Shown here in pieces: positions 2,926 through 51,549 of a stretch of 64,000 nt of DNA. The translations under genes and the position numbers were made by a program. The number at the start of each line of letters is the position of its first letter. Position 1 is the first letter of the stretch. The notes beneath the pieces were generated by a model. That model was not told the DNA's origin, made no database searches, and was given only the letters and a program-made list of their open reading frames with translations. The stretch is taken from positions 1-64,000 of IMG/VR virus record IMGVR_UViG_3300045988_127883. One strand, given 5' to 3'. This DNA comes from a virus.

Positions 2926-3725
2926 TATTAAAAACGACAACCAACGAGTTTTGTTTTATTAACGTAAGTTTCTATGAAACAATAGCAGATCCTCGATATT
3001 TCTTTGAACAAGATTATGAAGAGATGCCGGAATATGAGGAGGAATTAGATTTTGATTCTTATTGCAATAAGTTTATTCCTTTTGTACAGGAATGGGCGGA
3101 TAAGGTGGGCGAACGCCTTTATGAATATGGTGTGAATAACATAAAGGTAATATCGGTCGGACATCCAAAAGATCGCAATTATGGTACTGATTGGATGGAT
3201 GTAAGGATAGAGTTTTGTGATGAATGGAGGCAAAAGATGTTATCTAACATTGGTAAGATTATTAATGATGATAAATGCAAGAAGTATGCGGAGGCTAATT
3301 ATCGGTCGGTATCAGGATACATCTTTTTAGGGCCTGAAGATTTAAAGGAATTTGAAAAGAAAATAATAGAAAGAAAGTCGGATTCTGGATATGATGTAAC
3401 AATATTATTAAATATGTATCCAACTTTGGCTTTTGTAAAAGAATTTGGATTTAAAGCCGGAGAAGCGTGGAGTGAAATAACAGAATATGCTTACGGATGT
3501 TTGTCGTATTCCGATTTTGCAACAACAGAGATGCTTATACCAGAAGGTTCGGAGCATTTATTCAAAGACATTTACACGGCAAAGGCCGACGAATTATATC
3601 ATCATGTCCTGGATAAATTCGGATGGGCGTGGCGTGATCCGAAATATAAGTCAGAAACAGAATTATGCGCGATGCTAAAGTGGGCAAAAGAAAAAGGCTT
3701 GACCATTGAAGAGTTAAGTATTTAA
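2922..3725 (+). CDS. Hypothetical protein (267 aa).
   Basis: Long intact ORF. Its start overlaps the previous stop. Confidence 0.5.
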   Translation: MILKTTTNEFCFINVSFYETIADPRYFFEQDYEEMPEYEEELDFDSYCNKFIPFVQEWADKVGERLYEYGVNNIKVISVGHPKDRNYGTDWMDVRIEFCDEWRQKMLSNIGKIINDDKCKKYAEANYRSVSGYIFLGPEDLKEFEKKIIERKSDSGYDVTILLNMYPTLAFVKEFGFKAGEAWSEITEYAYGCLSYSDFATTEMLIPEGSEHLFKDIYTAKADELYHHVLDKFGWAWRDPKYKSETELCAMLKWAKEKGLTIEELSI

Positions 3726-3738
3726 TTGTTAAACATAA

Positions 3739-3770
3739 GGCAGTAGTGGTGCGTGAGTATAGGTGCTGCC
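3739..3770 (+). terminator. Intergenic hairpin of the family (stem ggcag/ctgcc, loop tagtggtgcgtgagtataggtg).
   Basis: Read directly. It lies between the stop at 3725 and the next start at 3789. Confidence 0.35.
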
Positions 3771-3788
3771 GTTAAAATATTTTATAAG

Positions 3789-4037
3789 ATGAAAAAAGAA
3801 GAGATTCAAACTATTTTATACACAATCAAAGAAGGAGACAGTATTAAAATCAAAGTACAAGACAAAAGTGAAGAGATAAGACTGCGGGATCATGTAAGAA
3901 GAACGCAGAAATACGGATACAGGTTTTGTTTGTCTCATTTGCATGATGGAATTTTCTATCTGGAGAAGTTGGAAGAAGGGGATAAGGATAAATACTATAG
4001 AGTAATAAACAGAGGAAATGGAAAGACCGGAGTATAA
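3789..4037 (+). CDS. Hypothetical protein (82 aa, MKKEEIQTILY...).
   Basis: An in-frame internal ATG is chosen because the upstream part of ORF 3753.. overlaps the hairpin. Confidence 0.45.
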   Translation: MKKEEIQTILYTIKEGDSIKIKVQDKSEEIRLRDHVRRTQKYGYRFCLSHLHDGIFYLEKLEEGDKDKYYRVINRGNGKTGV

Positions 4038-4311
4038 TAAGCTACGCAAAATGGCTAAGACTACCCCAGGTCTGATAGTGGACGAGGCGCAAAACATGAT
4101 GCGTGTATCGCTATACGATAATGGGGAACTTAAGAAGGTGGTAGTAGTAATGAAATGCGATTCTTTTTTACAGTCAAAAAGTAACATAGAAAAGATAATG
4201 TTATTATCATCTTCCATAGAAGATAGAAAAAACAAAGAAAAAAATAAAACAAAATCAGAAAATGAACAGAATAACAAAAATAAGAGAAGAAATAGGAGGA
4301 AAACAGGTTGA
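4018..4311 (+). CDS. Hypothetical protein with a K/N/R-rich low-complexity tail (97 aa).
   Basis: ORF. The tail overlaps the next gene by 50 nt in another frame. Confidence 0.35.
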   Translation: MERPEYNKLRKMAKTTPGLIVDEAQNMMRVSLYDNGELKKVVVVMKCDSFLQSKSNIEKIMLLSSSIEDRKNKEKNKTKSENEQNNKNKRRNRRKTG

Positions 4312-4645
4312 TTTGACCTTTTACGGGCGCTTTTGCAGCCTTATCGAAGATGATAGAAAGATAATACTAAGGGCGATAAAAAACGGTCGTAAGAAGGGCG
4401 TAATTGGAGCCATTCAGCCTGGGAGACATGATAGAATTTGGACCACATGGTCTATTGCTTTTGATGATTTGAAGGTAGGGGATACGGTAGAGTTCAGTAC
4501 ATCTGGAAAATACAATCCCGGATTTCATGCTACGGAAAAGTATGTAGGGTGTGTAGAATGGATAAAAGGATCGGAATGTGCGATAAAAACCGGCAATGGA
4601 ATGGCGGTAGTATTAATTAAACACATAGAAAGGGTAGTAAAATGA
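4262..4645 (+). CDS. Hypothetical protein (127 aa).
   Basis: Intact ORF. Confidence 0.45.
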   Translation: MNRITKIREEIGGKQVDLTFYGRFCSLIEDDRKIILRAIKNGRKKGVIGAIQPGRHDRIWTTWSIAFDDLKVGDTVEFSTSGKYNPGFHATEKYVGCVEWIKGSECAIKTGNGMAVVLIKHIERVVK

Positions 4646-4926
4646 TGGGGTTGAGAGAATTTGTAGAACTTTTTGACAAGAATGAAGTAAAGAATTTGTT
4701 TAATGCATTGTCTTCATGTATAGAATACGTAAGGATAGATTTGCATGTATTTAATATAGGTGCTCATGTTGCGTGTCTGTACAGTAATGATCCTGAATTG
4801 CTTTCACAGGCAGAAGGTTGTAATGTGAATATGATAATAGAGGTACCCTACTTGTTTGAAGCATTTATGGAATACGCTTCACCGGAACTGAAAGCTTATT
4901 ATGATGAACTAACAAAAGAAGTATGA
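4642..4926 (+). CDS. Hypothetical protein (94 aa).
   Basis: Intact ORF with ATGA overlap. Confidence 0.45.
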   Translation: MMGLREFVELFDKNEVKNLFNALSSCIEYVRIDLHVFNIGAHVACLYSNDPELLSQAEGCNVNMIIEVPYLFEAFMEYASPELKAYYDELTKEV

Positions 4927-5805: not shown

Positions 5806-5842
5806 CGGCACTGGTCTGCGAAGATAGGTGCCGTTTTTTTTA
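5806..5842 (+). terminator. Rho-independent-like terminator. It has a 6-bp stem cggcac/gtgccg with a 16-nt loop tggtctgcgaagatag, followed by T9. It is the best member of the hairpin family.
   Basis: Stem, loop and T-run read directly. It lies between the stop at 5784 and the RBS (aaaggagg) of the gene at 5863. Confidence 0.55.
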
Positions 5843-12323: not shown

Positions 12324-12529
12324 TTAAGCTAAATTAAATCATTTTGAATCTTTTTTATTATCAAAAGGCATATCTTTGTCCAAAAAAACAAACAGAATGG
12401 AAGAAAAAGAGATAAAAGAAGCTATGATTGAAGCTCTGACGCACTTAGAGGGGTGTAAGTATTTCGTGGCCATAATCGAGAATAATGCATAACCCATACA
12501 AATCATAAACAATTTGTATTGTATTATGC

Positions 12530-13999: not shown

Positions 14000-14493
14000 T
14001 TAATTTGAATAAAAATATAGACATGAATCGTTGGTTTGAAATCACAGTAAAAGCCGAGATTGATAATATCGAGAACGGCAAAAAAAAGAAGGTAACTGAA
14101 AAGTATTTGGTAGATGCCTTATCTTATACAGAGGCAGAATCAAGATCTTTAGAGATTTTCAAGGATTTATTTCAAGTGTTCGACATTGTTAAAATAAATC
14201 CTATTAAAGTGTCGGAAATCTTCTTCAACGGAGAAGCTGAGTACTGGTATAAGTGTAAGGTAAATTACATTACACTGGATGAAAAGAAAGGTAAAGAAAA
14301 GAAAACGCCATGCTATATGTATGTCCAGGCCGGCAATCCGAAAGACGCTGAGGCTGTGTTAACTAAAGGTATGCAGGGCACGTTAGGAGACTGGAATTGC
14401 GAAGCTATTGCTGAAACGAAGATCATTGACGTATTCAAATACGATCTTCAGAAGGGAGCTGAAAAATTAGGCGAGAAGAAGAGTGAAGAGTAA
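13996..14493 (+). CDS. Hypothetical protein. The start may be the internal ATG at 14023.
   Basis: The ORF has a TTG start at 13996 and an ATG at 14023. Confidence 0.45.
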   Translation: MINLNKNIDMNRWFEITVKAEIDNIENGKKKKVTEKYLVDALSYTEAESRSLEIFKDLFQVFDIVKINPIKVSEIFFNGEAEYWYKCKVNYITLDEKKGKEKKTPCYMYVQAGNPKDAEAVLTKGMQGTLGDWNCEAIAETKIIDVFKYDLQKGAEKLGEKKSEE

Positions 14494-18737: not shown

Positions 18738-18789
18738 GGCGCGAATTGCCTATCTTTGTGCTATTATCAATCAAAAAAAATGTAAGAAG

Positions 18790-20615: not shown

Positions 20616-21746
20616 ATGGAGTTTGGAACATTCGATAACAAAACGACAAAAGTTAACATCCGGAATATTTTCAAAACCTCCAAACAGGTTATGGAAGAGG
20701 CGTATGAGAATATCTTGAAATACAGGCGGGGAGAGCTTATCCCCGCTAAAACCGGATACGATTATATTGATGAGGCTTTGCTTGGAGGTATTTTCCCTCA
20801 GCATGCTATTGCCATAGGAGCCCGGCCATCTGTAGGTAAATCGTATGTGGCCCAAAAGATATTGGAAAATGTGATGAATCCGATGATCAACCCGCAAGCA
20901 GAAGATTATTTTCTTGTTAATTGCGAGTTCGAAATGAATCCTCAAGATCTTCTTCTTCGCAGAATGAGCCAGGATATGAAAAAGCGGGCTCCTGAAATAT
21001 TAAGAAGGCAAGATTCTAATACAGTAGAAGAGATGAGGATGTTTGAAATCCTTCAAGGTGAAATCAGAAATAATATAATATACATCGATGCTCCGTGTAC
21101 GGTAAAAGAGTTTGAGGCGGCTGTGTATCATATAGCTACCAAACATAAAGACAAACGTCTTATAATATTTAAAGTCGATCATATTGCTTTGATAAAAAGA
21201 ATGGGATTAGATCCTAAGTCGGCTATAGATGATTTGGTGGCGGTTATGAACGAAGCTAAATTAGTATATAAAAACATATTTTTCCTCATCATATCCCAAT
21301 TCAACAGAGAAATAGAAGGAAGGATAAAAAGCCCACAAGAGCAGCCTCCGCGTCTTTCTGATTTTTACCAGTCTGATACGCTGGGTCAGTTATGTACGTT
21401 AATGATAGGTTTGCACAATCCTCGTAGGTACGGGCTGGATAAGTATATGATATTTGGGAAAGATTGGTATCAGACTCTTGATAGGTTTAAAACTGAAAAC
21501 AAAACATCATTCAGGACAGCCGGACTTGTGTTTCATCATATACTGAAGGTAAGGCAAGTTAGTATGGAAGAGCTTACTAATACAATCCACCCAGAGATAC
21601 TGCCGGGACATGGATGGATGTACGGGGAGGGCGGGACGAAGTTCGTGAACCCCAACCAGCCGCCGACGCCGCCTAAGCTCTATACTGTGGAAGACGTTAC
21701 GGACAATCAGGAACAAGAGACAAAAAAAGAACAGTCATTGTATTAA
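20616..21746 (+). CDS. DnaB-like replicative helicase, RecA-fold C-terminal domain (376 aa).
   Basis: Walker A GARPSVGKS. DnaB-like SQFNRE (SQLNR) motif. Walker B-like IIFKVDHIAL. Confidence 0.65.
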   Translation: MEFGTFDNKTTKVNIRNIFKTSKQVMEEAYENILKYRRGELIPAKTGYDYIDEALLGGIFPQHAIAIGARPSVGKSYVAQKILENVMNPMINPQAEDYFLVNCEFEMNPQDLLLRRMSQDMKKRAPEILRRQDSNTVEEMRMFEILQGEIRNNIIYIDAPCTVKEFEAAVYHIATKHKDKRLIIFKVDHIALIKRMGLDPKSAIDDLVAVMNEAKLVYKNIFFLIISQFNREIEGRIKSPQEQPPRLSDFYQSDTLGQLCTLMIGLHNPRRYGLDKYMIFGKDWYQTLDRFKTENKTSFRTAGLVFHHILKVRQVSMEELTNTIHPEILPGHGWMYGEGGTKFVNPNQPPTPPKLYTVEDVTDNQEQETKKEQSLY

Positions 21747-21761
21747 AAAAAAATAAGAACC

Positions 21762-24016: not shown

Positions 24017-24049
24017 TTTTTTTATACCAACAATTAAATTTTAAAAGTT

Positions 24050-36132: not shown

Positions 36133-36179
36133 ACAACAATCCCCAACCATACAATAGGCGTACGGTTGGGGATTGTTGT
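36133..36179. terminator. Bidirectional terminator at the convergent strand switch. It has a 15-16-bp perfect stem acaacaatccccaacc / ggttggggattgttgt with a 15-nt loop.
   Basis: Read directly. It lies between the stop of the plus gene (36089) and the stop of the minus gene (36179). Confidence 0.55.
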
Positions 36180-36859
36180 CATATCGTAAAATTAAGTGTT
36201 TTTTCTAATATCAGATATTCAGTATGAACTTTACTTCCGCCATCATTTATCAAGTCCAAATTAATATAAGCTTTATATGATACATGATGATCACCAGGAG
36301 CAAGACGTTTCATATCTGATAAGAACATAGAATTTAAACCTTGGCCAGACCATGATTCTGGATATGGCAAAGGTTTAAAGTCGGCGTCTGTACATCTTAC
36401 AGCCCAAGTAAGATTAGGATCTGCCCTAACTATTCTATCATGAGGTCCATCAATTACAAGATCTGGCATCTCATATTGGTAACTATCATAATTAAGGACA
36501 ATAGGATCACCAAAGTTTACACCGTATATAGCAGCAGGTGGAGTAAAGCTTGTTATTAAAAAGGTTCTATTAATCCTATTGGTTGTTCTTAGCGTAAACT
36601 CATCAGGTACTATCACACTTACTCTAAATCCATAATAAGGAGAGGTTGTTAAAGCAATAGCAAGAACCACCGAATCCTGTTCAAGCAATTCCTCTGTCGT
36701 ATCAACCTGACTATCGATCTCTTGCCTATCTTCCATTGGAACACCGCCTTGGACACTTATGGAATCCAGCCGTTCTTTTTTAGACAGAAAGATAAATTGC
36801 CCGCCCTGTGGAATGGTGCCTACTTTCTTTCCTTCTACGATTACCCCCCCCCTATACAA
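36179..36859 (-). CDS. Late, virion-associated-region protein (226 aa body). Its N-terminus depends on a G9 homopolymer: the upstream ATG at 36915 (MRRRFENN...) is out of frame with the body at G9 and in frame at G10 or G7.
   Basis: Minus-strand reading: atg aga aga aga ttt gaa ... tgt ata ggg ggg ggg taa is a 24-aa ORF ending right after the tract. The body is in frame with TTG at 36859 only. The paralogous leader MRRRFQ lies at 37540. Confidence 0.5.
   Translation of the reverse strand: MYRGGVIVEGKKVGTIPQGGQFIFLSKKERLDSISVQGGVPMEDRQEIDSQVDTTEELLEQDSVVLAIALTTSPYYGFRVSVIVPDEFTLRTTNRINRTFLITSFTPPAAIYGVNFGDPIVLNYDSYQYEMPDLVIDGPHDRIVRADPNLTWAVRCTDADFKPLPYPESWSGQGLNSMFLSDMKRLAPGDHHVSYKAYINLDLINDGGSKVHTEYLILEKTLNFTI
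36844..36852 (-). repeat. Homopolymeric G9 tract on the coding (minus) strand, C9 on plus, inside the 5' end of a gene. It is a candidate slipped-strand phase-variation switch.
   Basis: Counted directly: ttaccccccccctatac has 9 C. Confidence 0.8.
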
Positions 36860-36919
36860 TTGCTAACTATCTTATACTCATATAGTTTAGCATTATTTTC
36901 AAATCTTCTTCTCATAATT

Positions 36920-37375
36920 TCATAAAATTAATTCGGTAAAGGGGCGGACATAACGTGGATTACTCCTTGTACTTGTATCCAAATGATCTCCTTGGATGTT
37001 TATATCATAATACCACGAATAGGTAAATTGTGTAGATTGAGTGGATGTCCACATTTTATTACTCATTATCGTACCTCCTACCATTAAAAGGCATTCGTTT
37101 ATTTCATTCGCATACAATGATATCAAAAAAAACTCTCCGGCGCCACCTACATATCCATTTTGACCATTTTTAAATAAATAGCTATTAGCTTTATTAAAAG
37201 CGTAATTTTCATTACTGGTATCATATTCAAGATACGCATTCTGATTTTCACGCCCCCAATAATCCTTTTTAACGGTCTCCATATAAGAACTATTTTGTGC
37301 AAATACATTGTCTACTCTTCCATCCTTACCCCAACGAAATGTGCCAATATATTCGGTGGCTATAACAAAACACAC
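36920..37375 (-). CDS. Paralogous small late protein (151 aa, GTG start). An upstream in-frame leader MRRRFQIGMGVNPSLIINKGIYI starts at 37540 and is separated from the body by an in-frame TAA at 37466-37468.
   Basis: Minus-strand translation done by hand. Same frame through leader, TAA and body. The leader is homologous to the one at 36915. Confidence 0.45.
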   Translation of the reverse strand: MCFVIATEYIGTFRWGKDGRVDNVFAQNSSYMETVKKDYWGRENQNAYLEYDTSNENYAFNKANSYLFKNGQNGYVGGAGEFFLISLYANEINECLLMVGGTIMSNKMWTSTQSTQFTYSWYYDINIQGDHLDTSTRSNPRYVRPFTELIL

Positions 37376-37745
37376 TTTATCTACAAGAGCTATTCCATTG
37401 CATAGATCATTGGAATATCCTTTATTAGACCAATTTTCTTTTGTATATAATCCTCCATCTACATGTTAGATGTATATGCCTTTATTGATTATAAGCGAGG
37501 GATTTACCCCCATCCCTATTTGAAATCTTCTTCTCATTTTTTTTGCAAGATACTATTTTTTTTTCATAACAAAAGAAACCGGTTCCCTATCATCTCTGAC
37601 TGAGAACCGGTAAGAAAACAATTTCAGAAAAAATAAACCTACAAACTTTTCAAGTAAGAACAAAAAACGTACAATCTACTCTTTGACGATGCTAATATAA
37701 CATATTGGAATCATACAAAAACAATGCAAGTCTGATATTCTTCGT

Positions 37746-40700
37746 CTATTCGTAGCTAACATCATCGTCTTCTTCCGAATCAGGAGTGGCGCCGATGAAG
37801 AACATCATTGACCTGTTGTTCGTCTGCTGCCACCAGTTATAGGCGCGTGCTACGTCTTCCGGCGTCTTAATGTTATACCATTGTTTGATAAACGTCTGTT
37901 TGGCGAGTTGCCTAAATAACTTAGACTCTCCTTTGTATGTGCCGGATGTTACTTTATCAAGTGAGTAATTCCTAAGATCAGTAAGATCCTTCAACTTCCG
38001 CCCCATGACAAGCGGGTCGTTAATGATATCTACAACGTTAAGCTCCATAATAAACGGCATCTGTGAAGCTATTTCGTTTATGGTTCTGAATCCGACATAG
38101 GATCCAAATTGAGTAAGCCAACTTTCTTCGTTTTCATCATCATCACGCCATCCGGCAAGAAGCATGGATACGGCTTGCATGATAAGGAACGTGCCGGCAT
38201 AGACACTGAGACGTTTTATATTGGTTTTCTCTACCTCATCCATATTGTCTTTATTTTCGTTCCAGGCATCTATGATGTTTTTCATACCAGACTCGGAAGC
38301 TAAGCTAAATGTTTTGGCTATCATATTCTTTAACGTAATTGACAGTCCTTCCTCTTCTTGCATTGTCTGGAAATTGAAGCCACGTCTTTTCCACAGACGT
38401 TGAGCCGCCAGCACCAACCATCCTCGGTGGGCGGTCATGAACCTGGCTATCCAGTTGCGCGATGCGGCAGTTCGGTTTTCTTCATTCAAAGATCCGTTAC
38501 ATATCTGCGACAAGCTACGAACTTGATTTCTGGTTATAGCCATCTGGGTTTCAACTTCCTCAACAGTAACACCCGATCCTGGCTTTACAACCACCTTCCC
38601 ATCCACGACGTCTACCATACTCCATAAAGTACGATCTTTTAATGCATTCCATTCTCTTTTTATGGTACTCTGTTCTTTATTACGTTCTTTTTCCATCTTG
38701 AAATCTTGGAACGTGTAGAACCGGCCTTTGTAATAACGAACATTGTCCATAGTAGCAATCATAACCTGCGGATCAAGAGGGTAGTTCAGGATTTCCATAA
38801 AAGCATACATAGGCGAACGCATTAAGGTCCTGGCCGCTCTATTGTATCCGGCACCATACATACGATTTCGGATATTGAATATCCCCATTCTCTCACCTAT
38901 GACATATAATTTGCTTTTCCTATCTATGTCTCCGGTTTCTGCTATACAAGATGGCGCAAGACGGGAAAACTCAGCCGATGCGTATTTAAGGGAATCTTTG
39001 CTTATATACTGTCCTACGGCTGATTCCATGATGAGGTTGATATGGCCGGTAAGGGCGCCGGTAGCTGCCACAAATGGAGACAGTGCCAAGTTCATGACCG
39101 ACATAAACCTTTCAACAGCCATCATAATTCTTGTAAGGTCTACCGTATATCCTCCGATGTTCACCGTAAGTTTTTTGGTGTTCATCCTAATGCCATAATA
39201 ATGATCGTTGAAGAAGTCCCTGAACATCTGATATGCTTGGGTTGCTTCAGCCTTTTTACCACCTTCAAATTGTTTATTTAGTAACATCTGCTCCAGTCCT
39301 TGAGCGAGCTCTATAGACTTCTGCTTTTCGTTGTATAACGATGACTGCATCATAAGCATCGAATAAGAGTAGCCAAAATCGTGAGATACATCATCTTGGT
39401 TCTCCAATTCATATATGTAGTATTTAGGTATAGACCTAAGCCTGTCTTCTGGATCATACACTTCTCCTTGCCTGGTCTTACCATATAGAGAATCGTCTAC
39501 TCTGTCCAGGCACAGATCTGATACAAAATTACGAACCGTATTTTTGAAGTTAATACCCAATCCTTCTACACGTTCTATATCTTGTTTGGATATCTGTGGA
39601 ATAGCATACAGGTTCGGGCTCTGCTCTTTGTATAGATCAAGGGATTGTCTTTTTATTTCCTTGAGTTTTTGAATCATATTCCACTGCTCTACGTTTTTAG
39701 TAGCAACCTCATTACCGTCAGCATCATACTTGATACCAAAGTCATTGAAATACGATTCGTCACGATACAGGCTTTTCTTAGGCATTCGATGACCATACCC
39801 ATGATCTTTTACATAATCAGGATTACGACCGCTATTTTCGGCTTCAGATTCAGCCACCCATGCCCTTGCAGGGTCGAAAGACAAGTACGATATGTCCATG
39901 CCATAATCTTGGGTGGATGTACCGTTTTGTACGTCCTTAACCATTTGCGCCACATCTATCTCACCTCGACCGATTTTGTCGATCATAGCTGCATATCCGG
40001 TAGGCGCCATGCGTTTATAGTACGAAAAAACCTGGCTTCTGGCAAATTCATTAACAATAGCATTAGCTTCTTCTACGCCCTCTTCTCTTGTATTATTTAA
40101 AAATAAGCTGGCCATCTTAGCATTAACAGCATTCCTGAAATCTCTACCGTCTAATTCTTTGCTTATACCAAGCTTTTCTGACAGGTAGTTGGTTTCAGAT
40201 ACGGTAAACAGATATCGGTTATCAGCAGCCTTAAACAGCTTATCCCTTAAAGCCTGAATCCTTTTTGCTTTCTTCGCCGTAGTATGACGTTGTACGAACT
40301 TCCATTCCACTTCCTTGGAGTCAGCAAGAGCATTTAAATAAGACTGATTTACTTCGTTTTCAGCCTTACTGCTTTTAGTAAGGTACTTATCAATATCTTC
40401 AAGACCCACCATCTTAGCATAATCTATCAAAATAGCGTAATCGGCTTCAATAGCTTCAGATGCGGCCCTAAAAGCATCTCTTTCGGATGAGGTAAATGTC
40501 GCTTCGTTAATTTCTCCGATATCAGCCACATCGCGATTGTTTCCGATTATTTCCTTGATAATAGCCTTATTTTTTTCTATATCTTTCACAATAGAATCCA
40601 CGTCAGTCGCATCTCTATCACTTGTCGTAGAACTAATGATATCATGCGCCATTTTAAGATACGAAGCCTTGTTATTTGATCTGGTACGTGCCGACTGTTC

Positions 40701-43700
40701 TGATTCTACATCATTCCAAAACCGATCGTTGAATGACAGGTGACCTCCCAACATAAGTGTCTTCAGCGCAGCTTCTCCTCCAGACTCGCTCTGAATCGTT
40801 CTTAATTTTTGCAAAAACGATTCTGATACGGCATTAGTGGCATTATTTGATTCCTTTCTCCAAACTTCATTTATAGCTTGTATTTCTTTGGCCATCTTAA
40901 GTTGGTCGCCGGTTTTTTCCACTCTCCTGGTTCCTACATATATGTATTCTGAAGCTGCTTCCTTACGTTGTTTACGAAGCAGTCCTTCTTCTTCGTAATT
41001 GCTGCTTTTAAAATAGGCAACCTCATCAAAATTACCACCGCTATCAATAAAAGGCTGCCTCAATATCCGTTTTTGCCGGGATAGGGCATTAAGATATTCT
41101 TTGGTTGTTTGAGAAACCGGATACCCTAATTCTTCTTCAGCCTTTTTGTATATGGATTCCATTCTTGTGGCATAACTTTCGCTAAATTCCAGTTCCGAAT
41201 TTTCAGCATCCCACTTTTCCATCTGCTCTGTATAGATCTTTTCCTGCTCGATGGTAAAAATATCGGTATTAACTCTATCAGACGATGGTTTGAATTTAGC
41301 GTTTTCAGTAACCGTATTTCCATCCTTGTCAACTACTTCTCTTTTAAATACGTAATTACGGTTATTGTCAACCACATCACCAATTTCTTCTTCTGATATC
41401 TCTATGTTCATGGCAGTCGCAAACGCTCGCATCTGCGCCAGCTTCTTATTACGATCGTATTTAGCCATATCAAGAGCACTACGAAGATAATTAGAAGTTT
41501 TGCCGTCTACTTTCTGAAGCAGTTTTTCAAATTCAGATTTGTTAAAACCATGCTTTTTAGCATATGCCAGGAAGTCGGATATGGCGGGCTGGGCATTCAC
41601 CATCGCATTGTAATTGTCTTTGGCAATCATAGCTCCAAGAGCGTTATTGAACGGGCTGGAAGAATGCTCTAATATACCAAACCACCTACTTATCCAAGAA
41701 ACATCGTGTTGAACCTTGTCAAAAAATTCTTTTACTCTCTTTACCTTATCTGCCGGCACATGAAGTTCGTTCATTAACTTATCAAGCAACGTACTTTCAT
41801 CAAGGTCTTGTACTGATTTAATATCAGACTGAATACCATTGATGTCGGCAATGACGGTATTGATCCTATTTGTATAATCCTGCTTTTCACGTTCATCAAA
41901 TTCGGTACTTCTGTTACGGATATATCCTCGAAGATCGTTCATGATCGGAAGAACCTGATTGTTGATAATATCTACGTTATTTCGATCATTGGTATTGAAG
42001 TGAAGCTTACCGTCTTTGGTATCACCATGAAGGATGGTGTTCACCACATTACTTAAGTATCTGACCTGAGCTTCGGCTGTGGAGATCATGCTGTTCATGG
42101 CAGCCGCCATCTCATTCTTGTCTATTTCGGTCTCTACCTTATTTATCTTATCTTCTATGGTCTTAAGCTGCGCAAGGGTCATAGACGTAGTTACAGCCCT
42201 ATCAGAGCTTATCTGACGTAAGTCTCTTAATGTTTTTCTTAGTGATCTGATCTTAGACTCAAGAAACTTGTTCTTGTTCATAGAAGAAAGGGAGTATAAT
42301 GTAAAATCATTATCCTTTAACAGAGAGGTATCAAATCCTTTATCTATGTCGGTAATAGCAAGATCACGAATGTTTTTAATAACGTTATTCAAATCTTGTC
42401 TTTGGGTAGATAAAGCTGATTTAAGCCAGCTTACGATTCCAGAGAGAAGCTGCCGGACGCGCCCCAGGAAGGAGGTGGGCTCTACCGGCGCCTGTGCTGT
42501 GCCGGTCTGCATCTCCCTGGCGAGGATCTTTCCAAGAATTTCCCTCCTAACAGCATTATCAAGCTCGGCTCCTTCATATACTTTACCGTATGTATTATAA
42601 TACTGACCTGCATACTGGTTCCACTCTTCTGTGCCTTCTACATCTTGCAGAATAGCCTCAACAGCATTCTGATCTCTGTATGCCTCTACAAGGAAGTGGG
42701 CTGTTTCTTCTACTAAATCAGATAAAGTAGCATCTTCACCAACTGCTATTACGTTATTGGCAATATCCGCCAATGCCTTAGCAGAAGGTTCGTGCCCGTA
42801 TTTGGTTTGATACTTCTCTATATAGTCGGTCATACCTATGACACTAACGCCCAGCGTTTTTAATATCTCTACAATAGAATTTCGTTGGTCACGTTCCTGC
42901 CTGCTATAATCCGATACGATCTTAGCTTTAGCATCAGCATAAAGATCGTTGTCTTCTAATATGAATGAAACTACAAGCGCATCAAAATGATCGTACTTAG
43001 CATCCAATTCATTGTATCTTCCTGACTTGAGATCGTTCTTTATCTGCTCCTTGCTAATCCTCTCCGTTCCTCCGGTGGCGAGCCTCATAGTTACCTTACT
43101 ATTATCCAACGAGCTTATGGTTATCATACCTTGGTCGTTCATGGAAACATCGGAACCAAAATGATTACGGAGCTCGGTGTAGGATAATGCTGAATTGAAA
43201 AGTCTAATTTGTCCTGTATGTCCTTCTCCTGTAAGATAATAGCTCCTTGTTTCAGGATCGAATATCTTGGATCCGGACAAAAGACCTTTCTTTATAAGGT
43301 AGTTAATTATCCCGCCTTTCGTTGATAAAGAAGTAGAAGCAGAAGCGGTCATGACCGGTATAAAAGACTTGGGATTATTAAGAACATACTTTCCAGCCTT
43401 GTAAGTAATGTCTGCCACGCCATCCACGGCAGATTCTTGAACGGTGCCGGATAAGAATCCTATTCTAATATCATTCCCTCCAGAGCGAAGAGCTTCTCCG
43501 TAATCTTCAAATAATTGACTACGATCGTTCATGAAAAACAAACGAGGCTCTCCAGTCTGATACGTTACACCCACAGGATTAGAATCTGTCTGTGGTAACT
43601 CTTCTGGGCTAAATATCTTAAGACCGTCTTTTATAACCATATAATTAACACCCTTATCCTGTACCATAGATACGGGGGTGAAGTCCGAAGATATAGTATC

Positions 43701-44168
43701 TTGTAGATACTGACCGGCGTCTATTCCAGGTCCTTCCGGTACGGAAATACTTGACGGAACCATAGCATCCACCAACATAATATTATCACCCAGATCTTGG
43801 CTGTAGAATCCAAAGCCCGATTCTCGGATTTCATAAGGTGCATCTGATTTTGACACAAGAACAGGATTACTCATCTTAGAAGCCTTATCCAGCACCCTTT
43901 CTCTATAGGCTTCCGGAATAAGATCGATGTTGGATTTTACCTTATTATAAGCCGGTTTGTTGATAGGCACTCTCTTTCTCCAGTCGCCAAAAGCCTTTAA
44001 GAACTTATTAGAAAATACGGTTTTAAAAACAGTAGTAGCCCGCTCCCTATTTTCCATAAGAGGAATAGATGCTATTTTATCAAACAACATAGACCTGTCC
44101 CCTGATCTGGTAGAGACAGAAACAACTTTCTTTTTATTATCTCTTTTAATAATACACGTTGACGCCAT
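37746..44168 (-). CDS. Giant virion-associated protein (2140 aa). It is a putative structural, ejection or tail protein with no recognisable catalytic motif.
   Basis: Single uninterrupted 6.4-kb ORF. Flanked by minus-strand terminators (about 37570-37603 and 44220-44256). Confidence 0.7.
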   Translation of the reverse strand: MASTCIIKRDNKKKVVSVSTRSGDRSMLFDKIASIPLMENRERATTVFKTVFSNKFLKAFGDWRKRVPINKPAYNKVKSNIDLIPEAYRERVLDKASKMSNPVLVSKSDAPYEIRESGFGFYSQDLGDNIMLVDAMVPSSISVPEGPGIDAGQYLQDTISSDFTPVSMVQDKGVNYMVIKDGLKIFSPEELPQTDSNPVGVTYQTGEPRLFFMNDRSQLFEDYGEALRSGGNDIRIGFLSGTVQESAVDGVADITYKAGKYVLNNPKSFIPVMTASASTSLSTKGGIINYLIKKGLLSGSKIFDPETRSYYLTGEGHTGQIRLFNSALSYTELRNHFGSDVSMNDQGMITISSLDNSKVTMRLATGGTERISKEQIKNDLKSGRYNELDAKYDHFDALVVSFILEDNDLYADAKAKIVSDYSRQERDQRNSIVEILKTLGVSVIGMTDYIEKYQTKYGHEPSAKALADIANNVIAVGEDATLSDLVEETAHFLVEAYRDQNAVEAILQDVEGTEEWNQYAGQYYNTYGKVYEGAELDNAVRREILGKILAREMQTGTAQAPVEPTSFLGRVRQLLSGIVSWLKSALSTQRQDLNNVIKNIRDLAITDIDKGFDTSLLKDNDFTLYSLSSMNKNKFLESKIRSLRKTLRDLRQISSDRAVTTSMTLAQLKTIEDKINKVETEIDKNEMAAAMNSMISTAEAQVRYLSNVVNTILHGDTKDGKLHFNTNDRNNVDIINNQVLPIMNDLRGYIRNRSTEFDEREKQDYTNRINTVIADINGIQSDIKSVQDLDESTLLDKLMNELHVPADKVKRVKEFFDKVQHDVSWISRWFGILEHSSSPFNNALGAMIAKDNYNAMVNAQPAISDFLAYAKKHGFNKSEFEKLLQKVDGKTSNYLRSALDMAKYDRNKKLAQMRAFATAMNIEISEEEIGDVVDNNRNYVFKREVVDKDGNTVTENAKFKPSSDRVNTDIFTIEQEKIYTEQMEKWDAENSELEFSESYATRMESIYKKAEEELGYPVSQTTKEYLNALSRQKRILRQPFIDSGGNFDEVAYFKSSNYEEEGLLRKQRKEAASEYIYVGTRRVEKTGDQLKMAKEIQAINEVWRKESNNATNAVSESFLQKLRTIQSESGGEAALKTLMLGGHLSFNDRFWNDVESEQSARTRSNNKASYLKMAHDIISSTTSDRDATDVDSIVKDIEKNKAIIKEIIGNNRDVADIGEINEATFTSSERDAFRAASEAIEADYAILIDYAKMVGLEDIDKYLTKSSKAENEVNQSYLNALADSKEVEWKFVQRHTTAKKAKRIQALRDKLFKAADNRYLFTVSETNYLSEKLGISKELDGRDFRNAVNAKMASLFLNNTREEGVEEANAIVNEFARSQVFSYYKRMAPTGYAAMIDKIGRGEIDVAQMVKDVQNGTSTQDYGMDISYLSFDPARAWVAESEAENSGRNPDYVKDHGYGHRMPKKSLYRDESYFNDFGIKYDADGNEVATKNVEQWNMIQKLKEIKRQSLDLYKEQSPNLYAIPQISKQDIERVEGLGINFKNTVRNFVSDLCLDRVDDSLYGKTRQGEVYDPEDRLRSIPKYYIYELENQDDVSHDFGYSYSMLMMQSSLYNEKQKSIELAQGLEQMLLNKQFEGGKKAEATQAYQMFRDFFNDHYYGIRMNTKKLTVNIGGYTVDLTRIMMAVERFMSVMNLALSPFVAATGALTGHINLIMESAVGQYISKDSLKYASAEFSRLAPSCIAETGDIDRKSKLYVIGERMGIFNIRNRMYGAGYNRAARTLMRSPMYAFMEILNYPLDPQVMIATMDNVRYYKGRFYTFQDFKMEKERNKEQSTIKREWNALKDRTLWSMVDVVDGKVVVKPGSGVTVEEVETQMAITRNQVRSLSQICNGSLNEENRTAASRNWIARFMTAHRGWLVLAAQRLWKRRGFNFQTMQEEEGLSITLKNMIAKTFSLASESGMKNIIDAWNENKDNMDEVEKTNIKRLSVYAGTFLIMQAVSMLLAGWRDDDENEESWLTQFGSYVGFRTINEIASQMPFIMELNVVDIINDPLVMGRKLKDLTDLRNYSLDKVTSGTYKGESKLFRQLAKQTFIKQWYNIKTPEDVARAYNWWQQTNNRSMMFFIGATPDSEEDDDVSYE

Positions 44169-45133: not shown

Positions 45134-46008
45134 CTAAAGCGAATGGGATTCTTGGATACAAGCGCAAGAAACCCCGATATTACTATCGTTGGAATTACTC
45201 TTGCTCTCCAATTCGGAAATGCCCTTCCGAAGTATATTACGGGCTGCAAGAACATCACGGTCGTTAATCGCTCCGCACGCTGGGCACACCCACGTGCGGT
45301 CGCGTAACGACAGACCTTTATTAATGCAGCCACATTCACAAGTTTTGGAAGAAGGATACCATTTGTCAATCTTGTGTATCGTTACTCCATACTTTGAAGC
45401 AACATACATTAGTTTGTCAATAAAAGAAGAATGACTGAGATCAGAAACTTTCTTTCCCCACAAACGTTTCATTCCTTCAATGTTTAGATCTTCAATAAAA
45501 ATATAATCATACTGTTTGCATAAATCATGAGCTAATTTCCATTGAAAATCCGATCGAAGATCGTTTATTTTACGATACGCTTGTTGTAGTTCAAACAGTC
45601 TCCTTCTCCTATTATTGGATCCTTTCTTTGCATTAGAAAACCGTTTGTTTAGTTTTCTAATCTTGTTTTGATATTGTTTGAAGAATAGTGGAGACCCAAT
45701 TTTGCTACCATCACTTTTAGTTAAATAAGTTTTTAGTCCAAAATCCAATCCGATAGATGCACCATCATGTGTCTTTCTATAAGAGCTTATAGGATTATGA
45801 TCTGTAACTATAATCAAACTAAAACGGGAACAGGTTTCTCTAACTATTCTAATTTGTTTAACATTACCTTCGTAGACTCTACTGTATGAGAATCTAAATC
45901 GTTTTTTCCTTTGTTAATTGTTAGACAATTACCATTTAGGGTAAACCCTCCTTGTTTGAAAACAAATTCGCCACCGTATCTTTTATTAGCCAATTCTTCT
46001 ACGGTCAT
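45134..46008 (-). pseudogene. tnpB: TnpB-like (IS200/IS605 OrfB, RuvC-type OMEGA nuclease) remnant. It lacks most of the N-terminal REC/WED region and is frameshifted at an A6 run.
   Basis: C-terminal 227-aa ORF with RuvC-I IGLDFGLK, RuvC-II IFIEDLNIEGM, zinc finger CECGC...CPACG and RuvC-III INDRDVLAARNI. An upstream ATG at 46008 gives MTVEELANKRYGGEFVFKQGGFTLNGNCLTINKGK, then an A6 run; the +1 frame continues KRFRFSYSRVYEGNVKQIRIVRETCSRFSLIIVTD (WED-like) into the RuvC domain. Confidence 0.6.
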
Positions 46009-51009: not shown

Positions 51010-51549
51010 TTATAAAACCGACTTATACAATGACGGATCCCAAATTCCTTCTATATAAATCTCCGGAAAACTCAAACTGCCATCACGAAGAGTGGTGACT
51101 TCCAAGCTGGGAATGTTGAAAACAGTACTGGTATCACCAAACTCACCATTCAACTTGATAGCATTTCCGCTGTTATTAGCCTCATAATAAAAATAACAAT
51201 AATTTTCATTAATGCTTGGATCATATTCGTACCAATATGTTAGATCTTGTATATGATCTTCTATGTTACCAATTTTGTTTTCACCTAATATAAAAATACC
51301 ATTATTGCTATGATTATAAACCATAGATTCATAACCACCATAATTCCAATCACTATTAAACCTTATGTAACTAACATCGGAATCATGATCTTTTAATACA
51401 GGCCCTATATGTATATGAATTTTATTAAACTGACATACATAAGGTCTTTTTCCTCCAAGCCTTTTTATATCTTCATTGGATAACTTATTATAACATCCTC
51501 CCACAAAATTATCCGCAGCATTAAAAAATCTCCTTCTCATACTTAACAC
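51010..51549 (-). CDS. Hypothetical protein (179 aa).
   Basis: Intact ORF. Its start overlaps the stop of the upstream giant gene. Confidence 0.5.
   Translation of the reverse strand: MLSMRRRFFNAADNFVGGCYNKLSNEDIKRLGGKRPYVCQFNKIHIHIGPVLKDHDSDVSYIRFNSDWNYGGYESMVYNHSNNGIFILGENKIGNIEDHIQDLTYWYEYDPSINENYCYFYYEANNSGNAIKLNGEFGDTSTVFNIPSLEVTTLRDGSLSFPEIYIEGIWDPSLYKSVL

Follow-up and report, generated by a model that had tools for sequence, protein, structure and literature searches.

A poly-G tract that sets the reading frame of a late gene in a human-gut phage: a candidate phase-variation switch

Receptor-binding genes of Fletchervirus, a group of Campylobacter phages, carry hypermutable poly-G tracts of 7–11 residues (Sorensen et al. 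2021, Cell Rep 35:109214, as cited in PMC12823448, PMC10877375 and 10.1101/2025.10.21.683753). Contingency loci have also been described in coliphages T2 and T4, where reversible slippage frameshifts occur at short homopolymers and bet-hedging has been proposed as their role, the mechanism being put forward as a general one for these phages (Gomez, Barrick & Waters, 10.1101/2025.10.21.683753). In bacteria, poly-G/C contingency loci are found in surface genes of Campylobacter, Haemophilus and Neisseria (PMC8355987, PMC5084427). Here, we analyze a poly-G tract in a late gene, designated gene B, of a ~150-kb human-gut phage. The gene is located in the first 64,000 nucleotides (nt) of IMG/VR record IMGVR_UViG_3300045988_127883, a stretch referred to below as the window. 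The proposed mechanism is that of a classical slipped-strand contingency locus, known already in Fletchervirus, and gene B shows those defining features of such loci that can be examined in silico. Full-text literature searches returned no report of a poly-G switch in gut or crAss-like phages.

A frame-setting G run in gene B

Gene B is encoded on the minus strand (Table 1). Its ATG opens a frame of 24 codons, of which codons 22–24 are formed by a G9 tract, and a TAA follows directly; in the G9 state, the ATG frame encodes this leader alone. The remainder of the gene, a body of ~221 codons counted from the tract (VIVEGKKVGTIPQGG...), is in the −1 frame. Upstream of the tract the body frame is shut by a TAG at 36865–36863, and the earliest possible start in it is the TTG at 36859, from which 226 codons extend to the stop. 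A change of +1 G or −3 G fuses the ATG frame with ...GGGVIVEGKKVGTIPQGG... of the body. The G10 form occurs exactly as predicted in 24 related genomes and yields a product of 245 amino acids (aa), and the G8, G9 and G11 forms yield products of 24–45 aa. An earlier reading of the window, made from its letters alone (hereafter, the sequence-only reading), had claimed that the ATG at 36915 runs into a TAA right after the G9, that G10 or G7 would rejoin this ATG to the body, and that at G9 the body is accessible only from a TTG. The minus-strand reading agrees with the first of these claims, the G10 relatives bear out the second, and the TAG upstream of the TTG confirms the third.

We consider it likely that gene B carries a selected poly-G switch that acts at the DNA level and is in the OFF state in the window. 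According to this model, gene B would be a phase-variable contingency gene, and its functional product would be an all-beta protein of 245 aa in which the 24-residue MRRRF... leader and the body share an N-terminal domain, with codons 22–25 of that domain written as an unbroken G run. As the phage DNA is replicated, slipped-strand mispairing would add or remove one G far faster than point substitutions arise. G10 (or 7 or 13 residues) would be the ON state, and G8, G9 and G11 would be OFF states that produce only a peptide of 24–45 residues. A single +1 slip could restore the gene from the G9 OFF allele of the window, its body being undamaged. Minor leakage at G9 might result from −1 slippage of the P-site tRNA-Gly at GGG_GGG_GGG_UAA or from stuttering of the RNA polymerase.

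The length of the tract varies widely among close relatives. A scan of IMG/VR identified 78 loci on contigs of ~30–158 kb, and 75 genomes were analyzable for the ON/OFF state. The longest G run at the site was G8 in 17 loci, G9 in 29, G10 in 24 and G11 in two, the other loci carrying interrupted versions; among the short-run interrupted variants, four of five (G5TG4, G6AG3, G5AG4 and G7AGG) are in frame. The ATG reads through to the full protein in 32 of the 75 genomes and fails to do so in 43. Among 42 genomes whose tract puts the gene out of frame, 41 have a complete body open reading frame (ORF) of at least 215 codons, and the tract is the sole lesion in 41 of all 43 OFF genomes. Comparison of related genomes, suggested as a check in the sequence-only reading, thus found lengths from G8 to G11, and G8, G9 and G10 were found on identical haplotypes: genomes L003 (G10), L026, L027 and L029 (all G8) and L069 (G9) have zero differences over ~750 nt of leader and body. 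For a second class of bodies (…CYVNNELIG…), G9 is the in-frame length and G8 an out-of-frame one.

To reconstruct changes of state and length, we applied Fitch parsimony to a neighbor-joining gene tree of the 75 genomes. The tree requires no fewer than 22 switches between ON and OFF and no fewer than 34 changes of length. Since shuffled ON/OFF labels require nearly the same number of steps (mean 24.4, range 17–31), the state is almost devoid of phylogenetic signal. Together, the intact OFF bodies and the ON/OFF changes on the gene tree support the contingency switch proposed in the sequence-only reading. Because these changes are scattered over the tree, we infer that switching is reversible within populations; it may proceed at a high rate and may be adaptive, as a form of bet-hedging.

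The tract stands out in its genome. The G+C content of the window is 37.8%, and the G9 tract is its sole G/C run of six or more residues in 64 kb. Dinucleotide-preserving shuffling gives an expectation of 0.07 G9 runs, and 5 of 100 shuffles contained one; the corresponding expectation for G6 is 12.2 matches, those observed all being inside the tract. The tract is therefore improbable by chance, and exceptional in a genome otherwise free of G/C runs of this length. Only three coding homopolymers of at least eight residues are present in the window: an A8 at 14080, a T8 in the neighboring gene A and the G9 of gene B. Furthermore, GGG is the rarest glycine codon, accounting for 11.6% of 753 glycine codons in 19 long ORFs, and GGGGGG spells none of the 48 Gly-Gly pairs found in these ORFs.

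Distant homologs of gene B, identified by profile search and then traced to DNA, retain the run in several lineages. Homolog L161, from the same phage group, has a G10 in frame at 38% body identity; in L162 (32% identity), the site reads G9TGG and is out of frame; and L160 (23% identity) has a G9 out of frame. Three further homologs are in frame, L164 with G9, L165 with G10 and L163 with the interrupted sequence GGGTGGGGGT. For L161, L162 and L160, synonymous divergence (dS) is 1.3–1.6 per site, and the ratio of nonsynonymous to synonymous divergence (dN/dS) is 0.42–0.76. That three third codon positions should have stayed G at such distances, in several lineages, would be unexpected without selection for the run. 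The persistence of G9 or G10 at 23–38% body identity, despite the rarity of GGG, argues that the tract is maintained by selection.

Several lines of evidence indicate that leader and body form one protein. Most clusters of gene B homologs, which contain hundreds to thousands of sequences from public assemblies, are 245 aa long from the MRRRF start. The leader is conserved in relatives, and its variant sites, read in the ATG frame, comprise six synonymous and four nonsynonymous ones. In the profile search, residues 8–63, which span the tract, match as one stretch, and this stretch recurs two to four times within proteins of 590–1270 aa. Several of the larger ones among these proteins also carry BACON domains and sub-threshold PEGA hits (16.8–19.7 bits against a cut-off of 20.8). 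Gene B has no match to PEGA (PF08308) or to any other Pfam family at E ≤1, and the description "PEGA-like" denotes resemblance only. In hhalign comparisons, KLYEYKIVSNCIGGGVIVEGKKVGTIP... pairs with LYTYTVNSNCNGGTVYFNNVNKGTIS.... An AlphaFold (AF2) model of gene B, with a predicted local distance difference test (pLDDT) score of 73, is all beta and places strands 2–6 and 9–17 in the leader. Because residues 8–63 align as one domain, the tract sits in a conserved Gly-Gly turn inside it, and because the first strands of this N-terminal domain are in the leader, a TTG-initiated product would be incomplete. Use of a start compatible with G9 is unlikely, since the domain spans the tract.

Neither Pfam nor PHROG yielded a match beyond noise at E ≤1 for gene B, gene A or the cassette of phage csAssE-Sib. 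The only fold matches of gene B are to a generic Ig-like beta sandwich, and none of the 49 representatives obtained in its profile search is annotated. Our best guess is that the gene B product is an accessory component of the surface or tail with a role in binding or host interaction, given its position in a structural block, its fold, the kinship of its repeat with BACON proteins and a sister gene that matches phrog_5302 (see below).

Alternative explanations of the frame break

A number of observations weigh against a selected switch. The gene is OFF in 57% of the genomes, and lengths of 8, 9 and 10 would also be expected from an unselected slippery tract. Shallow pairwise dN/dS of the body is ~0.95 (1.8 between ON genomes and 0.7 between OFF genomes), a value that relaxed constraint and diversifying selection could each account for. 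Gene B lacks Pfam and PHROG hits and has only generic fold matches, and its function and virion location are guesses. Finally, the locus tolerates gene loss: gene A, which adjoins gene B, is inactive in 32 of 71 genomes (45%) through at least 14 different lesions. These include changes in its own runs, with the G5 at 37511–37507 becoming G4, G6 or G9 and the T8 at 37132–37125 becoming T7 (nine times) or T9 (eight times), among others. In the window, gene A is broken by a private nonsense codon, TAA at 37468–37466 (codon 24), where all relatives have CAA, and this codon lies at the same distance from the start as the frame break of gene B.

Much of this would suit the decay of a dispensable accessory gene, in which the G run is a mere mutational hotspot, the OFF alleles (43 of 75 genomes) are pseudogenes and switching is unselected. 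The shallow dN/dS close to 1, the broken neighbor and the swapping or deletion of cassettes at the locus between genomes all speak in favor of this explanation, which we nevertheless judge improbable. Lesions of many kinds inactivate gene A, whereas gene B is silenced almost solely at the reversible tract, which is the only lesion in 41 of 42 OFF genomes; this is at odds with true decay. At least 22 changes of state on the tree would mean that the gene has often reverted. The tract has survived at dS above 1.3 against codon preference, dN/dS at such depth is 0.42–0.76, and interrupted variants with short runs are mostly in frame (four of five).

Less probable still, in our estimation, is that G9 is the normal state and that recoding, either a −1 frameshift at G_GGG_GGG_GGG_UAA or transcriptional slippage, yields short and full-length products in a fixed ratio. 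G9 is indeed the most common length (29 of 78). While a slow stop codon occupies the A site, the P-site tRNA-Gly could form perfect pairs again after a −1 shift, and the resulting product would equal that of G10. However, the sequence downstream shows no significant structure (z −0.64), nor is the tract fixed in length: G8, which would need a +1 shift, G9, which would need a −1 shift, and the in-frame G10 are found on identical haplotypes. Moreover, bodies of the second class are read in frame with G9 but not with G8.

Several sequencing platforms make errors in long G runs, and one related IMG/VR contig stops right at the tract, so it might be supposed that the true genome is G10 and the frame break is an artifact of sequencing or assembly. 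As a control, we measured every homopolymer in 80 related loci over 4–24.5 kb of the window. The coding A8 at 14080–14087 is A8 in 78 of 78 relatives, whereas intergenic A/T runs of 7–9 vary in length, the A9 at 21745, for example, from 7 to 10 (Table 1). This difference indicates that length variation is biological and filtered by selection, and such selective sparing of essential genes is not expected of errors. In addition, an independent Logan assembly, L166 (SRR35966943), encodes the exact 226-aa product of the window and again has G9, and out-of-frame lengths are found in 43 genomes from many samples. Assembly error is thereby excluded as the source of the length variation, and an artifactual frame break is very unlikely.

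The contig that stops at the tract, L039 (IMGVR_UViG_3300045988_109117), is 100 kb long and ends exactly on a G11; this is the outcome that would be expected of an assembler if tract lengths in the sample were mixed. Some of the variable intergenic A/T runs closely precede genes and might modulate their expression.

The least credible alternative is that of two genes, one for an upstream peptide of 24 codons and one for a protein of 226 aa starting at TTG 36859, with G9 functional as it stands: the TTG is present 7 nt ahead of the tract and gene callers give products of 221–227 aa in OFF genomes, but leader and body residues 8–63 align contiguously to internal repeats elsewhere, most homolog clusters measure 245 aa from MRRRF, G8 leaves the body frame shut by a TAG directly before the tract with no TTG start, and TTG starts without any leader signal are unusual.

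Sister genes and genomic surroundings

Gene B is the last gene of a minus-strand block that encodes very large virion proteins, namely, proteins of 2140 aa (phrog_37651), 2238 aa and 894 aa (phrog_36695); the 2140-aa protein heads the gene B end of this late block. The sequence-only reading had gene B follow the giant virion protein, which requires a small correction: it does not do so directly, as the 205-codon gene A sits between the two. We considered a coordinated or mutually exclusive switch of genes A and B and rejected it, the states of the two genes being uncorrelated (Fisher p 0.23).

Table 1 Coordinates of gene B, its neighbors and variable homopolymers in the window.
Feature	Coordinates	Strand	Description
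Leader reading frame	36841..36915	minus	ATG 36915-36913, 24 codons MRRRFENNAKLYEYKIVSNCIGGG, G9, then TAA 36843-36841
Poly-G tract	36844..36852	minus	G9 (C9 on plus strand); Gly-Gly-Gly of ...SNCIGGG; sets frame
Gene B body	36179..36844	minus	−1 frame, GTA ATC GTA... = VIVEGKK..., stop 36181-36179
Gene A	36920..37537	minus	205 codons, MRRRF start; stop 4 nt before gene B ATG
2140-aa protein	37746..44168	minus	phrog_37651 'virion structural protein', E 1.1e-75; 'structural protein' in csAssE-Sib
Hairpin	36133..36179		perfect 21 bp, right after gene B stop; free energy (dG) −35.1 kcal/mol, z −8.7
Polymorphic A/T run	5834-5841		intergenic
Polymorphic A/T run	12382-12388		intergenic
Polymorphic A/T run	18773-18780		intergenic
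Polymorphic A/T run	21745-21753		intergenic
Polymorphic A/T run	24017-24023		intergenic

A second poly-G gene was found in the same phage group (L167–L190 in IMG/VR). It has the form MRRRFFNKI-(G9 to G11)-LPTDNF..., with the tract after codon 9, and in relatives it is located ~5–6 kb past the left end of the window (positions 1–948 of L174 correspond to window positions 968–34). Its 371-aa product matches the tail-protein family phrog_5302 (E 2.8e-32), and both ON and OFF alleles occur. Two unrelated Logan contigs from gut metagenomes, L160 and L163, carry several genes with MRR(R) starts, G9–G11 tracts and differing bodies; the leaders in them are 12–25 codons long, and several of the genes are out of frame. 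Three poly-G genes are clustered within 3.2 kb of L160 (tracts at 743, 1554 and 3075), and L163 has three tract-bearing genes (2894, 6063 and 6656) and one with an interrupted tract, in a region adjoining a gene that matches Pfam CrAss_Ring_2.

Cassettes are exchanged behind the MRRRF leader. At the site corresponding to window positions 36841–36915, csAssE-Sib (L001, 4586–5035) retains the MRRRFEN start, which is followed by an unrelated body of 149 aa. In L042 and L046, the gene A leader is joined to the gene B body at the G run; gene A is missing from L028, L051, L072 and L079; and L161 has three MRRRF cassettes in tandem (2933–4735). In this phage lineage, at least three MRRRF genes, gene B, gene A and the tail-protein homolog, have a frame-setting G run within 6–21 codons. 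It is conceivable, although we hold this view only tentatively, that the MRRRF leader and poly-G form a reusable 5' switch module behind which different bodies are exchanged. In IMG/VR, ATGAGAAGA-N20-50-G9 matched 21 times, compared with 9 matches for a control in which the leader was scrambled. The sister gene accounts for six of the 21; the remaining 15 contain in-frame stops or are high in G+C and look like chance matches. The module would therefore be confined to few lineages, which weakens its broad reading. A general enrichment of MRR starts with G9 in IMG/VR was rejected, the counts being barely above the scrambled control. If the module is real, abundant gut phages would possess a small "phasome" of several independently switching surface or tail accessory genes, giving combinatorial virion types in each population. 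The conserved leader would then also provide a site for recombination through which cassettes are exchanged.

Another small MRRRF gene, the third in the window, is located at 51010–51540 on the minus strand (MRRRFFNAADNFVGGCYNK...), between the genes for the 2238-aa protein and a 752-aa protein. Its Gly-Gly lies about as far into the gene, but no homopolymer is present. The motif TATCTTGC / TATCTTTG is present 8–25 nt upstream of several MRRRF starts, namely, at window positions 37545–37552 (minus strand) before gene A, at ~2910 of L161 and ahead of the tract genes of L163. We take this motif to resemble the Bacteroidetes −7 promoter element TAnnTTTG. If so, the host may belong to the Bacteroidota, and the MRRRF cassettes may have promoters of their own. 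A scan of the window for sigma-70 promoters returned 8 promoter-like sites against 7.8 expected, and the host probably uses a different promoter type.

A hairpin (Table 1), also kept in csAssE-Sib, separates the gene B block from convergent plus-strand genes and is probably a bidirectional transcription stop. A scan for intrinsic terminators called none in the window and left this hairpin uncalled, because it lacks a T tail. Further into the late block, a 227-aa ORF at 45134–45817 (minus strand) matches IS605 OrfB and Cas12f1-like TNB (TnpB) and transposase phrog_506, with similarity reaching to ~45966. The ORF has 76% DNA identity to a 379-aa copy in L163, is shorter than that copy and appears to be a truncated mobile-element remnant.

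Phage csAssE-Sib (151 kb, human gut) is the sole GenBank phage with DNA similar to that of the window, and no paper on it was found in the literature. Within the collection of GTDB species genomes, the possibility that gene B is a prophage or bacterial gene was rejected, a scan with the family alignment having yielded no relative.

Comparison with known switching systems

Experimental poly-G phase variation in phages is known from Campylobacter phages only, to which short runs in T-even phages have lately been added. Gene B is a clear case, drawn from genome comparison, in a phage that is very common in the human gut. Should the switch govern an accessory protein of the surface or tail, individual phage populations in the gut would be mixtures of phenotypes with respect to host interaction, which, if true, bears on phage persistence alongside phase-variable Bacteroidales hosts. 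There is also a consequence for annotation: in over half of the genomes, gene callers report TTG-initiated products of 221–227 aa or split ORFs, hiding the single 245-aa protein.

Other phages alter accessory or host-interaction genes by different means. Mu Gin and P1 Cin invert tail-fiber segments, and mtd of BPP-1 is diversified by a diversity-generating retroelement. Gene B resembles these systems in that programmed, reversible or high-rate change would be confined to a gene for an accessory or host-interaction function where a late block ends. However, site-specific inversion and mutagenic retrohoming swap or diversify a protein, whereas gene B would be toggled on and off. In the gpG/gpGT tail assembly chaperone of lambda, a programmed frameshift at a fixed slippery site gives both products in a set ratio. 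As in that system, a slippery run joins two frames in a phage late gene; unlike it, the run in gene B is polymorphic in length and lacks a stimulatory structure.

Gene B also shares features with the bacterial contingency loci. In both cases, a 5'-proximal homopolymer within an ORF gives the ON state at one length in three, OFF variants keep the downstream ORF intact, and the state is phylogenetically random. The difference is that gene B is virus-borne, and its switching would take place during phage replication and act on a virion or infection phenotype.

Close counterparts are the receptor-binding genes of Fletchervirus. The two systems share an intragenic run of 7–11 G in a phage late gene in which one-G changes shift the frame, and the outcome in Fletchervirus, mixed progeny with or without the protein, is likened to that proposed for gene B. 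No sequence homology to the proteins or phages of Fletchervirus was found, csAssE-Sib being the only GenBank match and the profile-search representatives lacking annotation. The gene B phage is a ~150-kb phage of the human gut, not a Campylobacter myovirus; its protein is unrelated, and a receptor-binding role for it is conjectural. The tract itself is placed differently, at codons 22–25, where it encodes the conserved Gly-Gly of the N-terminal domain behind the MRRRF leader. The switch proposed for gene B is deduced from genome comparison. The runs of T2 and T4, in turn, are mostly of at least six residues, are spread over all gene classes and have been measured experimentally. Gene B differs from them in that one long G run stands in a genome from which G/C runs have otherwise been purged, a pattern typical of a dedicated switch.

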